A stretch of DNA of 24,000 nucleotides from Candidatus Saccharimonadales bacterium. GTDB lineage: Bacteria; Patescibacteriota; Saccharimonadia; Saccharimonadales; UBA4665. Numbering within the stretch: position 1 is the first letter of the stretch; each line of letters begins with the position of its first letter. The notes beneath the pieces were generated by a model. It was not told the DNA's origin. It saw only the letters and a list, made by a program, of their open reading frames with translations, and ran no database searches. Location: the NCBI GenBank assembly GCA_035479655.1, contig DATIIL010000005.1:166213-190212 (forward strand), written 5' to 3'. The position numbers were made by a program, and so were the translations under genes. Shown one piece after another: positions 11,693 to 14,707 of the stretch.

Positions 11693-11721
11693 ATTATACT
11701 ATCATAAACACAATATGTCAA
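11693..11721 (-). promoter_or_regulatory. Consensus promoter driving the LPXTG gene, directly after HH-E
   Basis: Minus strand reads TTGACA-17 nt-TATAAT exactly. Confidence 0.7.
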
Positions 11722-11741
11722 GCATGTTACCAAGCTTGCGG

Positions 11742-11792
11742 CCGCTTTCGCTGTTTCCAGCTCATCAGCATGAACACACATTCATGGAGCGG
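11742..11792 (-). ncRNA. Type III hammerhead ribozyme HH-E (canonical core)
   Basis: Minus strand reads CCGC-TC|CATGAA-tgtgtg-TTCATG-CTGATGA-GCTG-gaaa-CAGC-GAAA-GCGG. Predicted cleavage is 3' of the C at 11787. Confidence 0.9.
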
Positions 11793-11890
11793 TAAAGCAG
11801 ACACAGAGTTTGATAGTAGAGTAGGAAGTTGTTTTAGTCCGAGGACCAAAACACCAATCCACATCCACATCTCTGTGAATGCTTTACCGC
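11789..11890 (-). other. Long imperfect 3' UTR hairpin of cassette X1
   Basis: The 20 nt arms gcggtaaagcagacacagag (11789-11808) and ctctgtgaatgctttaccgc (11871-11890) have a 2 nt internal mismatch. An apical stem gtttt.gtc-cgag-gac.aaaac is present. Confidence 0.7.
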
Positions 11891-11947
11891 CCGTTGAAGG
11901 GCAGGCTACTCCCAGAGTGCATGGGTGAGGGTAGTGACCCCTTCAGG

Positions 11948-12655
11948 TTAGACGACCACGATCTTCAGGCCCGGGGGCATGTCGCCGCCGAAGAAGCCGC
12001 GGATGTCGTCTTCGACCTGTTGCTGGATGCGCTGCCGCTCGGCCTCGTACGCCGCTTCAGCCGCTGCCGCCGCGCGCAGTTCGCCCGTCGGGTCGGCGAA
12101 GTCCATGATGACTCCTTCGACCAGCGGGTCGATGTTCTCGTCGTCCTTGTAGAGCGCGGCGACGCGCGTGAAGGCGACGTCGTCGTGCTCCAGGTTGACC
12201 GCCAGCACGTGGCTGACACCGTCGACCGAGAGCAGCCGCTCGCGCAGGCTGTCCAGGTCGTCGACCTGCGGCAGGTCGGCCCCGATGCAGACGTCGCCGC
12301 TCTTGAGCATGACGCTCATGAGGACGCTCTGCAGCGCCGCGATCAGCGTCTCCCGCTGGGCGGGGTCGCTGATGGTGACGGTGCCGATGGCCATGACGGT
12401 CTCGGTGCCGCCGTTGCCGTCGGGTCGCCAGCCGGACTCGGCGTCGTCCATGTCGTGCAGGTCGCGGTCCCAGACCACGGACTGCACGCCGGTGACGCCG
12501 GGGAGCTGAGTCAGCAGCACCAGGTGCTGCCAGTCGTTGGGCACCCGCCCGGCGACGCGGATCTCGATCTGGTCGGGCTCCGTGCCGGCGATGGCGGTGA
12601 ACGAGCCGAAGAACGGCTGGAAGAACGGCCGTTGGTTGTCGGGCGTCTCGAACAT
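11948..12655 (-). CDS. Hypothetical protein, GC-rich cassette cargo family 2 (235 aa)
   Basis: ORF 11948..12712 trimmed to the ATG at 12655 (MFETPDN...), which has AAGGAG 6 nt upstream. GC3 is high. The antisense ORF 11879..12730 is rejected. It shares long identical blocks with 13059..13598. Confidence 0.8.
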   Translation of the reverse strand: MFETPDNQRPFFQPFFGSFTAIAGTEPDQIEIRVAGRVPNDWQHLVLLTQLPGVTGVQSVVWDRDLHDMDDAESGWRPDGNGGTETVMAIGTVTISDPAQRETLIAALQSVLMSVMLKSGDVCIGADLPQVDDLDSLRERLLSVDGVSHVLAVNLEHDDVAFTRVAALYKDDENIDPLVEGVIMDFADPTGELRAAAAAEAAYEAERQRIQQQVEDDIRGFFGGDMPPGLKIVVV

Positions 12656-12694
12656 TCGAAACTCCTTGGTACTCTTCACTTCACTCGCCCAGTG

Positions 12695-12734
12695 CGAGCT
12701 AGCAAAAGGCAAAATATTACCTTCTGTTAGCTCG
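12695..12734 (-). promoter_or_regulatory. 5' leader hairpin of cassette X1
   Basis: The stem cgagcta (12695-12701) pairs with tagctcg (12728-12734), with an inner AAGG/CCTT helix and a ttgcctttt loop motif. The 3' arm can instead form CTCGC-actgg-GCGAG. Confidence 0.55.
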
Positions 12735-12812
12735 TACTGGACGCACTATCAAATACATTGTGTCTGCTAAGGTACTTAGCCATAGGCAAGAAGCCGTTGA
12801 CGAAGCGCACTT

Positions 12813-12841
12813 ATTATACAATTCGCGCGCTTTTATGTCAA
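12813..12841 (-). promoter_or_regulatory. Consensus promoter of cassette X1
   Basis: Minus strand reads TTGACA-17 nt-TATAAT exactly, 10 nt after the 3' end of HH-F. Confidence 0.75.
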
Positions 12842-12850
12842 CGGAGGTAA

Positions 12851-12903
12851 ACCGCTTTCGTCTTTTTAGACTCATCAGCATGAACACGCATTCATGGAGC
12901 GGT
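12851..12903 (-). ncRNA. Type III hammerhead ribozyme HH-F (canonical core)
   Basis: Minus strand reads ACCGC-TC|CATGAA-tgcgtg-TTCATG-CTGATGA-GTCT-aaaa-AGAC-GAAA-GCGGT. Predicted cleavage is 3' of the C at 12897. Confidence 0.9.
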
Positions 12904-13001
12904 AAAGCAGACACAGAGAGTTTGATAGTAGAGTAAGAAGTTGTTTCGTCCGAAGACGAAACACCAACCGCATCCACATCTCTCTGTGAATGCTTTACCG
13001 C
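12899..13001 (-). other. Long imperfect 3' UTR hairpin of cassette X2
   Basis: The 22 nt arms at 12899-12920 and 12980-13001 have the same 2 nt internal mismatch as X1. The apical 8 bp stem at 12943-12962 reads C(UUCG)G on the minus strand. Confidence 0.7.
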
Positions 13002-13058
13002 CCGTTGAAGGGCAGGCTACTCCCAGAGTGCATGGGTGAGGGTAGCGAGCCTTTCAGG

Positions 13059-13598
13059 TCAGACGACGTCCGCCAGGACCTCCTCGATCGTCTCCTCGAC
13101 ACTCGAGTCACCCTGGTACAGGATGGCGATCCGCGTGAGCGGGGCGCCGTGGAGGAGGTTGACCGCCAGCACGTGGCTGACACCGTCGACCGAGAGCAGC
13201 CGCTCGCGCAGGCTGTCCAGGTCGTCGATCGCCGGGATGTCCTCAACGATGCAGTAGTCGTCGTTCAGGAACATGACGCTCTCGATGACGCTCTGCAGCG
13301 TCGCGATCAGCGTCTCCCGCTGGGCGGGGTCGGCGATCGTGATGGTGGCGGTGGCCACGGTCGTGACGGCTTCCACGGCCTCGGCGGCGTTGTGGCTGTC
13401 GGCGAGGTCGCTCAACTCGTGCAGGTCGCGGTCCCAGACCACGGACTGCATGCCGGCGACGCCGGTGAGCAGGGTCTGCAGCACCAGGTGCTGCCACGCA
13501 TTCGGCACCTCGCCCATGATGCGGAGCTCGATGATCTCGGGCTTCACGCCGGCGGCGATGGTGACCGAACCGATGAACGGCACCCTGTCCTCGGACAT
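13059..13598 (-). CDS. Hypothetical protein, GC-rich cassette cargo family 2 (179 aa)
   Basis: ORF 13059..13697 trimmed to the ATG at 13598 (MSEDRVPF...), which has AAGGAG 7 nt upstream. GC3 is high. The antisense ORF 12990..13670 is rejected. Confidence 0.8.
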   Translation of the reverse strand: MSEDRVPFIGSVTIAAGVKPEIIELRIMGEVPNAWQHLVLQTLLTGVAGMQSVVWDRDLHELSDLADSHNAAEAVEAVTTVATATITIADPAQRETLIATLQSVIESVMFLNDDYCIVEDIPAIDDLDSLRERLLSVDGVSHVLAVNLLHGAPLTRIAILYQGDSSVEETIEEVLADVV

Positions 13599-13634
13599 GT
13601 GGTACTCCTTCGTGCTATATACTTCACTCGCCCA

Positions 13635-13680
13635 GTGCGAGCTACCAAAAGGCAACGAATTACCTTCTAGTAGCTCGCAC
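13635..13680 (-). promoter_or_regulatory. 5' leader hairpin of cassette X2
   Basis: A 10 bp stem pairs gtgcgagcta (13635-13644) with tagctcgcac (13671-13680). The loop carries ttgcctttt (minus strand). An alternative CTCGC-actgg-GCGAG hairpin lies downstream. Confidence 0.6.
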
Positions 13681-13761
13681 CGCAGGCGTACTATCAAACA
13701 AATCTAGTGTCTGCTAATGTGCTTTGCCATACGTAATAAAACCGATGACAAAGATAGTAAT

Positions 13762-13790
13762 ATTATACAATTTGATGTTGACTATGTCAA
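13762..13790 (-). promoter_or_regulatory. Consensus promoter of cassette X2
   Basis: Minus strand reads TTGACA-17 nt-TATAAT exactly, about 10 nt after the 3' end of HH-G. Confidence 0.75.
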
Positions 13791-13800
13791 CTAAGTATTG

Positions 13801-13853
13801 ACCGCTTTCGCTGTTTCCAGCTCATCAGCACAAATACACATTTGTGGAGCGGT
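13801..13853 (-). ncRNA. Type III hammerhead ribozyme HH-G (canonical core)
   Basis: Minus strand reads ACCGC-TC|CACAAA-tgtgta-TTTGTG-CTGATGA-GCTG-gaaa-CAGC-GAAA-GCGGT. Predicted cleavage is 3' of the C at 13847. Confidence 0.9.
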
Positions 13854-13949
13854 ATTGCAGACACAGGAGTTGTTAGTTTGGGGTGGGTTGTTCGGGTCCG
13901 AAGACGCCGAACTGGACACACCCACAGACTCCTGTGAATGCGCCACCGC
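13849..13949 (-). other. Long imperfect 3' UTR hairpin of cassette X3
   Basis: Arms gcggtattgcagacacaggag (13849-13869) and ctcctgtgaatgcgccaccgc (13929-13949) have two internal loops. The apical stem at 13890-13912 has a C(UUCG)G cap on the minus strand. The stop codon at 13957 lies 8 nt from the hairpin. Confidence 0.7.
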
Positions 13950-13956
13950 CCGCCGG

Positions 13957-14523
13957 CTACTCGATAAAGAAGGCGTTTTCCACGTCGAAGACGCGGTGCA
14001 GCACCTCCCGGTCGTTGTAGCGCAGCATGAGCAGGTAGTCCCGCTCGTCCGGGTAGTCAACGACCACCGCACGCCATTCGATACCGTCGATCTTCTGGAT
14101 ACCCTCGTAGAGGGAGTCTATGGTCTCGACCGTGGCAACGATGGTGTAGACACCGGTGAGGCTGGCTCCGAAGAGCGCCTCGAGCCGGACGATCACGTCG
14201 TCCATAGAGGCGTTGGCCTCCAGGGTGACCTTGCCGGTGGCGATGAACTCGCCCTCCGGGTTGGCGTCTGCCAGGAGCTCGCCGAGCTCCCGGTTCCAGA
14301 CGACGTTTTGCACGCCTTCGACGGTGGTTGGGCCAGCCGTCAGCAGGTCGATCTGACAGTCACAGGCCAGCAGGCCCGCGAGCTTCAGGGTGATCGACCC
14401 GTCCTCACCGCGCGATACCGCGACACTCGCCGTTACCGGCGCGTCGTGGGTACCACACAGGTGGTCGCTTCCCAACGCGTCTGCGCACGGCACGATACGA
14501 GTGGGCTGCGAGAGGATGGTCAT
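13957..14523 (-). CDS. Hypothetical protein, GC-rich cassette cargo family 2, divergent member (188 aa)
   Basis: ORF 13957..14547 trimmed to the ATG at 14523 (MTILSQP...), which has AAGGAG 5 nt upstream. It is colinear with X1 and X2 (VEGVQNVVWNRELGEL versus VTGVQSVVWDRDLHD). The antisense ORF 13798..14568 is rejected. Confidence 0.8.
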   Translation of the reverse strand: MTILSQPTRIVPCADALGSDHLCGTHDAPVTASVAVSRGEDGSITLKLAGLLACDCQIDLLTAGPTTVEGVQNVVWNRELGELLADANPEGEFIATGKVTLEANASMDDVIVRLEALFGASLTGVYTIVATVETIDSLYEGIQKIDGIEWRAVVVDYPDERDYLLMLRYNDREVLHRVFDVENAFFIE

Positions 14524-14556
14524 GGCGTCTCCTTCGGTTTGGTTCAAAGCTCACTA

Positions 14557-14609
14557 GGTGCGAGCTAGCCGTGAACAATCGAAAGGATTATTCAGGAGTA
14601 GCTCGCACC
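14557..14609 (-). promoter_or_regulatory. 5' leader hairpin of cassette X3
   Basis: An 11 bp stem pairs ggtgcgagcta (14557-14567) with tagctcgcacc (14599-14609). An alternative AGCTC-n9-GAGCT hairpin uses the 3' arm. Confidence 0.6.
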
Positions 14610-14678
14610 TGTTTCAAACTAACAATCTTGTGTCTGCTAAGGTACTTTGGATAATCAAACGATTAGCAAAGTTGTTAT

Positions 14679-14707
14679 ATTGTATCATCTTGTCCTAAAT
14701 ATGTCAA
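14679..14707 (-). promoter_or_regulatory. Promoter of cassette X3 (first promoter of array 2)
   Basis: Minus strand reads TTGACA-17 nt-TACAAT. No hammerhead lies upstream of it. Confidence 0.65.

Follow-up and report, generated by a model that had tools for sequence, protein, structure and literature searches.

We analysed a 24,000-nt stretch of DNA from a Saccharimonadales bacterium (the window), whose sequence lies in the 497,713-bp contig CAZWKP010000001.1 of the metagenome-assembled genome (MAG) GCA_964634155.1; this contig was used to look past the window edge. The minus strand carries two arrays of small genes, each gene followed by a hammerhead ribozyme. Array 2 (11693-14707) consists of three units, A, B and C. 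Array 1 (1-3300) comprises units S, D, E and F and extends on the public contig past position 1 to an eighth unit, G, which completes it to five units, so that over the two arrays eight hammerheads bracket eight open reading frames (ORFs) on a single strand. The typical order is a sigma70 promoter, a structured leader, a Shine-Dalgarno sequence (SD), an ORFan with a high G+C content at third codon positions (GC3), a long 3' untranslated region (3'UTR) hairpin and a type III hammerhead, and all six elements are present in units A, B, C, E and F. A first-pass annotation of this DNA had described the units as ribozyme-delimited and self-promoted, with a conserved box, a GAGCTA/TAGCTC leader hairpin, an SD, a GC-rich ORF and a long 3' hairpin. 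All of these were found. The same order had been claimed for all seven units of the window; it is complete in the five units named, whereas unit D has a divergent box and lacks the leader hairpin, and unit S has neither box nor leader hairpin and a variant hammerhead core. Sequence comparison showed the UTR modules to be homologous across units.

The leader of about 150 nt opens with a 5'-terminal stem-loop, continues with the box GTACYTTAGCAGACA and a hairpin of 20 bp that has GAGCTA/TAGCTC at its base and, in array 2, includes an AAGGAG SD. The array 2 ORFs have 179-235 codons and are followed by 3'UTRs of 110-162 nt, each containing a long, imperfect hairpin. Unit A starts with a promoter at 14679-14707 (TTGACA-17-TACAAT, 11 of 12 consensus positions, with a TG extended -10). 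Its box (14631-14645) and unit-specific extension, together IR-L, span 14614-14645 and form 22 bp (-31.6 kcal/mol) with the unit's own 3' arm; the leader hairpin (CGAGCTA...TAGCTCG) lies at 14561-14605. ORF A (13957-14523; 188 amino acids (aa), family 1, GC3 0.85, SD AAGGAG) precedes the long 3'UTR hairpin (13847-13951), the 3' arm of which (IR-R, 13856-13881) runs on into the 5' strand of stem III and the cleavage site of the hammerhead at 13801-13853, with cleavage predicted between 13847 and 13846. In unit B the promoter (13762-13790) is followed by the box (13708-13722; with its extension 13688-13722), the leader hairpin (13638-13677) and ORF B (13059-13598; 179 aa, family 1, GC3 0.96). 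Its 3'UTR (12897-13058) contains a small hairpin and then a long one that is blunt at the cleavage site (IR-R 12905-12931), and the hammerhead at 12851-12903 (41 bits, E 6.7e-6) is predicted to cleave after 12897. Unit C has its promoter at 12813-12841, the box at 12761-12775 (with extension 12743-12775), the leader hairpin at 12695-12734 and ORF C at 11948-12655 (235 aa, family 1, GC3 0.95). Its 3'UTR with the long hairpin (11787-11947; IR-R 11795-11819) leads into the hammerhead at 11741-11793, for which cleavage is predicted after 11787.

Array 1 begins with unit S (-10 at 3206-3211), which encodes a predicted membrane protein of 88 aa (ORF S, 2894-3160) and ends in a variant hammerhead at 2630-2684 with the core CCGAUGAG (U4C). 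Unit D has a -10 at 2602-2607, a divergent box and IR-L at 2539-2575 overlapping the SD, and ORF D at 1972-2535 (187 aa, family 2); its 3' arm (IR-R 1863-1890) and hammerhead (1810-1861, predicted cleavage after 1855) occupy 1810-1890. Unit E (-10 1782-1787, box 1744-1758, leader hairpin 1665-1704, ORF E 1094-1618 with 174 aa, family 2) covers 1094-1787, and its 3' arm (IR-R 990-1015) and hammerhead (936-988, predicted cleavage after 982) cover 936-1015. Unit F (-10 903-908, box 866-880, leader hairpin 790-830, ORF F 186-752 with 188 aa, family 2) extends over 186-908, followed at 30-109 by its 3' arm (IR-R 86-109) and a hammerhead (30-84, predicted cleavage after 78). The unit G promoter, on the same strand, starts at about position 25 and leaves the window.

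Three promoters match TTGACA-17-TATAAT at 12 of 12 positions (minus strand, 13790-13762, 12841-12813 and 11721-11693), of which the first-pass annotation had listed the first two as exact; it had also correctly placed three cassettes, three hammerheads and four promoters on the minus strand of array 2. Promoter-like sites numbered six against 1.3 expected. The array 1 promoters are mostly of the extended -10 type with weak -35 hexamers. From the hammerhead to the next -35 hexamer the distance is 9-10 nt in two cases, within the 4-10 nt suggested before, and 19 nt in the third. A terminator search between the units gave no convincing candidate. At the end of array 1 the unit G hammerhead runs directly into a HAD-like backbone gene with no promoter between them, and thus expression of this gene would need read-through across the hammerheads. 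The first and last hammerheads of array 1 (2630-2684, and 11596-11650 of sequence L006) have the identical U4C change CCGAUGAG; ahead of the promoterless backbone-type gene, weaker cleavage by the last one might have been selected for.

The core motif CTGATGAG..CGAAA occurs seven times in the window, compared to 0 expected in shuffles, and six of these matches are the hammerheads of units A to F. The seventh, at 15343-15377 on the minus strand, lacks the surrounding hammerhead helices and was judged a chance match. Three helices surround the type III core; stem III is open and the other two, stems I and II, are capped. The canonical core, which consists of C3-U4-G5-A6-N7-G8-A9, G12-A13-A14, the A15.1-U16.1 pair and H17 as cleavage-site nucleotide, is complete with C17 in six of the seven window hammerheads; the U4C core is found in those of units S and G. 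We aligned 11 hammerheads, eight from this genome and three from metagenome contigs. In this alignment 95.7% of the cells are paired and 13 of 17 pairs show compensatory changes, a level reached by none of 500 shuffles, and slid controls gave 27-53% pairing. The Rfam model Hammerhead_3 (RF00008) matched five of six hammerheads at 32-41 bits (E = 7e-6 to 2e-3, below threshold), stem II being minimal (4 bp plus a tetraloop) and shorter than in the model. The unit C hammerhead looks like a mosaic, its stem I matching that of unit B and its stem II that of unit A, a pattern which suggests recombination or gene conversion between units.

When the 3'UTR was folded alone, its final 7-8 nt paired with an upstream 5' arm in seven of seven units. 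These terminal nucleotides are the stem III 5' strand of the hammerhead, U16.1 and, in array 2, C17. The 5' arm carries GCGGT (array 2) or GCAGT (array 1), a sequence identical to that of the stem III 3' strand, with which it covaries from one array to the other. For this sequestering hairpin we calculated -38 to -74 kcal/mol (7/7 units); the G-U pairs of the hairpins gave no clear strand assignment. The folds indicate that before cleavage the long hairpin and the hammerhead would be mutually exclusive, and that a cleaved mRNA would end in a blunt hairpin or a 1-nt overhang. That the ribozyme defines the mRNA 3' end, as the first-pass annotation proposed, is plausible and is strengthened by the pairing up to the cleavage site in every unit.

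The annotation had listed the conserved box as a separate element, and missed that it is, judging by complementarity, one half of a unit-specific 5'-3' complement that may compete with the 3'UTR hairpin for the hammerhead strand. The box forms the core of a longer, unit-specific complement to the 3' arm of the hairpin, comprising 15-22 bp with -20 to -31 kcal/mol as compared to a mean of about -10 kcal/mol over other mRNA segments. In all seven units the box region is the predicted best partner of the 3' arm in the entire upstream mRNA, and in all seven the global minimum free energy structure of the predicted mRNA (740-1020 nt) forms the leader/arm pairing across 700-1000 nt. In five of seven units the arm is predicted to pair best with the leader of the same unit, in the other two with a paralogue's leader. 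Unit D, with the divergent box UCGGAUACAGAUACA, has a correspondingly divergent arm. Predicted stem III probability was about 0.00 for the 3'UTR plus hammerhead alone in every unit and 0.24-1.00 in the full transcript; truncation of the leader returned it to about 0 in 7/7 units, as did shuffling of the box region in 19 of 21 shuffles. SD accessibility did not change consistently upon 5'-3' pairing. In unit D, which has a short leader of 60 nt, the complement of the 3' arm covers the SD (2539-2568 with 1863-1890, GGAGGAGGAG pairing GCTCCCCC), an arrangement that by analogy resembles translational occlusion of the icaR type and is not present in the other units.

Seven of the eight ORFs belong to two paralogous families, A/B/C (family 1) and D/E/F/G (family 2). 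Profile comparison between the families was not significant (hhalign probability 2%). In AlphaFold2 (AF2) models both families show the identical order of secondary structure elements, beta-beta-alpha-beta-beta-alpha-beta-alpha-beta-beta-alpha (predicted local distance difference test, pLDDT, 79 for E and 65 for B), and as modelled both look like tandem ferredoxin-like alpha/beta domains. The models gave no significant Foldseek match in PDB or BFVD, and the proteins matched nothing in Pfam, NCBIfam, PHROGs or PADLOC. A k-mer search of 5.8 billion proteins found paralogues only and no homologue outside the genome; an HMMER profile search, run exhaustively against 1.84 billion representatives, returned only the four family 2 paralogues. 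Proteins B and C are 57% identical and their 3'UTRs 95% identical over 87 nt, the UTR thus being better conserved than the protein. Paralogous ORFs, homologous UTR modules and fast protein divergence together argue for tandem duplication of whole units rather than capture of unrelated genes, at variance with the cassette system growing by serial insertion of units that had been envisaged.

GC3 is 0.81-0.96 in the ORFs versus 0.59-0.79 in the surrounding backbone genes, and the intergenic modules have 41-53% GC. High GC3 might reflect messages or proteins adapted to a high-GC actinobacterial host, a candidate reading and a weaker one. The ORFans are a quickly diversifying family in Saccharibacteria with a possible role where parasite and host meet. 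The same base composition, together with the ORFan status of the genes, a ratio of non-synonymous to synonymous substitution rates (dN/dS) of 0.9-1.6, that is about 1 (with the caveat that extreme GC3 depresses dS), and core mutations in two hammerheads, would also be expected of a decaying relic, namely remnants of a horizontally acquired high-GC element from an actinobacterial host or a phage with RNA motifs out of use. We give this explanation almost no credence: every ORF is intact and has an SD, three promoters are perfect consensus sequences, and hammerhead helices, leader hairpin and 5'-3' complements kept pairing through compensatory changes while the ORFs diverged down to 25% identity, which points to purifying selection on RNA structure.

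Six relatives (TrmD 83-87% identical) keep the gene order LeuRS-..-NusB-NUDIX-RNase III-..-S16-KH-TrmD-NiSOD. In these syntenic genomes hammerhead, box and consensus promoter are all absent from both array sites, where there are 0-3 small variable genes. Given the conserved synteny, both arrays are lineage-specific insertions, and both are inserted on the strand opposite to the housekeeping genes. After array 2 the insertion also includes a 216-aa LPXTG-anchored protein (11009-11659), a 270-aa protein and a GHKL ATPase, and after array 1 proteins of 258 and 260 aa. The LPXTG gene, previously taken for backbone, hence lies within the inserted block; the fourth promoter (11693-11721, perfect, with neither box nor leader hairpin) is predicted to drive it. 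The MAG is 100% collinear with three independent Logan assemblies, and at the level of these four assemblies the units have a single orientation. The organism is present in runs SRR9179559-62. An assembly artefact or synthetic construct was rejected in view of this collinearity and of the units being diverged paralogues, and a prophage was rejected because there were no PHROG matches and no DNA or protein match in 50,697 INPHARED phage records. About 33 kb around the arrays contained no phage or integrase domains. As for a defence system, PADLOC reported nothing for the cassette proteins and only a weak TmtA match for the downstream GHKL ATPase.

Inverted repeats of 15-22 bp flank every ORF, and one may ask if they function in DNA instead of RNA: unit-specific inverted repeats of 20-30 bp could be recombination sites of invertible segments or mobile cassettes, with the recombinase encoded elsewhere. 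The repeats are almost purely Watson-Crick and would work equally on either strand, the identical module design occurs at two separate variable sites, and the mosaic unit C hammerhead suggests exchange between units. However, no recombinase, transposase, integrase or phage gene lies within about 10 kb on either side of the arrays, neither strand of the two arrays has attC core pairs (RYYYAAC...GTTRRRY) within 40-130 nt, and the repeats differ between units, whereas the sites of one recombinase should be shared. Moreover, MAG and Logan assemblies agree on one orientation, the ORFs are paralogous and not unrelated captured genes, and nothing similar turned up when 185,579 species genomes, JGI metagenomes and IMG/VR were scanned, all of which renders a DNA-level element highly unlikely. 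The distinction from integrons drawn in the first-pass annotation, on the grounds of lacking IntI and attC sites, therefore stands; its reading as a mobile cassette system is only partly supported, the ribozyme-delimited, self-promoted layout being borne out and mobility not.

With a probability of about 0.45 we favour the reading in which one family of self-contained mRNA units, specific to this lineage and multiplied by tandem duplication, makes up both arrays, lies in two accessory islands and has 3' ends formed by a leader-gated hammerhead. As no terminator separates the units, transcription would read through, and the hammerhead would cut after C17 and set the mRNA 3' end. The 3'UTR hairpin would hold the hammerhead off: its 5' arm, which carries a copy of the stem III 3' strand (GCRGU), would sequester the cleavage site together with the 5' strand of stem III. 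Release would come from the leader of the same unit, in which the box and 10-15 unit-specific nt would pair with the 3' arm of the hairpin, free the strand and allow the hammerhead to fold. After cleavage the mRNA would be a 5'-3' panhandle or would carry a 2',3'-cyclic phosphate on a blunt terminal hairpin, and both forms should resist exonucleases. The more specific proposal, that these are natural cis-activated hammerheads locked by the 3'UTR hairpin and unlocked solely by their own leader, with 3'-end formation coupled to an intact 5' end and closed-loop, exonuclease-resistant messages for the fast-evolving ORFans of an epibiotic bacterium as the product, is tentative, and we regard it as possible rather than probable.

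A simpler account dispenses with gating. Multiple hammerheads of the same polarity that flank single genes have been reported in bacterial prophages, with mRNA processing proposed as their role (Perreault et al. 2011, PMC3088659), and such clustered ribozymes cleave efficiently in vitro (PMC3088659). By analogy, the hammerheads here could constitutively cut polycistronic read-through transcripts into single-gene mRNAs, while hairpin and complement would stabilise these or form RNase III stalks like those flanking ribosomal RNAs. The lack of terminators between the units fits this explanation, as do near-perfect duplexes of 15-22 bp, about the size of an RNase III substrate, an RNase III gene in the window (4583-5281) and the ungated hammerheads of a related metagenomic array (L023, see below). 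Constitutive cleavage, however, is hard to reconcile with the three-way arrangement of leader, hairpin and ribozyme: in each of the seven units a very stable hairpin sequesters the stem III strand and the cleavage site, its 5' arm copies the stem III 3' strand and covaries with it between arrays, and release in silico depends on the box region. We consider this account unlikely.

Hammerheads of one polarity at unit-length spacing without terminators in between might also give rise to circular mRNAs. Cuts at two successive hammerheads would yield a unit-length RNA with 5'-OH and 2',3'-cyclic phosphate ends that is closed by hammerhead reversal or by RtcB, the leader/arm helix serving as a clamp, and the 5'-3' complement would bring the cut ends together. 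Circular RNAs, reportedly found in a study of retrozymes, provide a precedent, and the idea was raised earlier for bacterial hammerhead clusters, although Perreault et al. did not detect circles (PMC3088659). In the arrays, however, a strong promoter lies downstream of the preceding hammerhead, so that most transcripts would lack the 5' ribozyme part, unit A has the complement yet no hammerhead upstream, and no reverse transcriptase domain was present among the called genes near the arrays. We give circularisation very little credence, slightly less than recombination at the DNA level.

Several observations weigh against self-contained units with a leader-gated 3' end. The design is known from one genome, a single MAG, and no hammerhead match reaches the Rfam gathering threshold (48.5 bits); the U4C hammerheads of units S and G may be inactive. 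Transcription start sites were predicted from the -10 positions alone. Thermodynamic folding is unreliable for RNAs of 1 kb and takes neither ribosomes nor co-transcriptional kinetics into account. Since the local hairpin should be the first to form, gating could amount to a delay or to plain inhibition, and units C and D attain a stem III probability of only 0.24-0.33. Only 3 G-U pairs occur in 137 bp of leader/arm duplexes, leaving the RNA strand unmarked, and inverted repeats acting in DNA fit this equally well. Gating also has no evident purpose, since read-through transcripts carry the leader, too. Finally, in the one other hammerhead array found, L020/L023, which has no sigma70 promoter, the hammerhead folds without a leader, i.e. 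it is ungated.

Control of hammerheads by alternative folds is familiar from viroids, retrozymes and engineered allosteric ribozymes. Like viroids and retrozymes, the arrays are predicted to combine a stable rod-like fold with a competing catalytic fold, and same-polarity tandem hammerheads would define unit-length RNAs, but the units are DNA-encoded, protein-coding bacterial mRNAs with promoters and involve no RNA replication or reverse transcription, and the putative activator is the message's own 5' end. RiboJ is a synthetic ribozyme insulator in which, as proposed for the arrays, a self-cleaving ribozyme between cistrons makes mRNAs independent of their neighbours. The same holds for ribozyme-assisted polycistronic expression, pRAP, a synthetic analogue (PMC9872166). 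In contrast to both, the arrays are natural, with the ribozyme at the 3' end of the upstream unit and before the next promoter instead of between promoter and ribosome-binding site. Pairing between the 5' and 3' UTRs of one mRNA is known from icaR of S. aureus (PMC3868564), with which all seven units share the predicted long-range leader/3'UTR complement; in unit D the arm covers the SD as well. In 6/7 units, however, the target lies 100 nt upstream of the SD, and the predicted outcome is release of a ribozyme strand, not a translation block or RNase III decay. Integron cassettes resemble the arrays in being tandem small ORFs in a variable region, with an imperfect hairpin of about 100 nt behind each ORF. 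They differ in that here there are no IntI and no attI/attC core sites, own promoters take the place of a common Pc, the ORFs are paralogous and a ribozyme on the coding strand is coupled to the hairpin.

The closest likeness is to the prophage hammerheads of Perreault et al. (2011), which also bracket small genes of variable or unknown function with the same polarity, and which the first-pass view that no described system has this combination overlooks. Here, however, the host is a bacterium of the candidate phyla radiation with no phage genes or integrase nearby, every unit has its own consensus promoter, the units form one duplicated family, and a sequestering 3'UTR hairpin overlaps the hammerhead and is matched by a unit-specific complement in the 5' leader. 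Hammerheads flanking single genes are therefore already described, and it is the combination of leader, hairpin and ribozyme into a putative switch that is new. Near bacterial and phage genes there are hundreds of hammerhead and twister ribozymes, whose function has been an open question since 2011 (PMC3088659, PMC6765202); the second of these papers, a review, still regards the role of bacterial hammerheads as open. If leader gating were true, it would be the first mechanistic role for clustered hammerheads in bacteria. With its tiny genome, the bacterium would make terminator-free, insulated and stabilised single-gene mRNAs, natural hammerheads would be allosterically controllable by a distant part of their own transcript, and the units would offer a compact natural template for synthetic expression units. 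Seven natural variants of one repeated design also allow for a sharp and cheap prediction, namely that cleavage needs the cognate 5' leader.

No second copy of the design emerged from the scans of species genomes, JGI metagenomes and IMG/VR. The species genomes yielded four single matches to the hammerhead pattern, none of which folds into the hammerhead helices, and IMG/VR only unrelated hammerheads (L026-L028) or chance box matches. Two identical cores, CTGATGAGTCCAACCACGAAA, lie 267 nt apart on the phage contig L028 (3872-4180, IMGVR_UViG_3300009168_000123), which is unrelated in sequence to the window. In the metagenomes the combination of hammerhead and box, a search that the first-pass annotation had proposed, gave no match, and the hammerhead alone gave one true relative array (L020/L023) and one single hammerhead (L014). 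This relative is a simpler hammerhead array, L023 1-1516 (ENA ERZ27300054 k141_71166), being the same sequence as L020/L024 (JGI Ga0194035_1056949). Three GC-rich ORFan ORFs are separated in it by a conserved AT-rich 3'UTR (AACCTRTCTTGGCAACAGAAG...), a type III hammerhead of near-identical design, and a leader hairpin with SD; the 192-aa ORF of L020 is likewise an ORFan.

The 556-aa GHKL ATPase (HATPase_c_3) and the 270-aa ORFan, with a raised GC3 of 0.79, occupy 8396-10887 of the minus strand, downstream of the LPXTG gene. The ATPase weakly matches a sacsin-like P-loop, the N-terminus of the BbrUII restriction enzyme and PADLOC TmtA, and the pair may form a module of the defence type. A 561-aa ORF without a family match lies at 5287-6972 (minus strand), between RNase III and S16; the relatives have other small genes at this spot, making it a third variable site, between the two arrays. 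At 17622-18647 (minus strand) a 341-aa ORF without a Pfam match adjoins an LPG-synthase-like gene. Inside this ORF, DNA repeats about 91 nt long recur 282 and 429 nt apart, and there is also a GC-rich 31-nt repeat family; the product looks like a repetitive surface-type protein. Finally, the minus strand at 18746-23539 encodes a complete cytochrome o-type oxidase cluster (COX2, COX1, COX3, COX4_pro and UbiA/CyoE), with Ni-SOD and its maturation peptidase nearby, a gene content indicative of aerobic capacity in this Saccharimonadales bacterium with its small genome.

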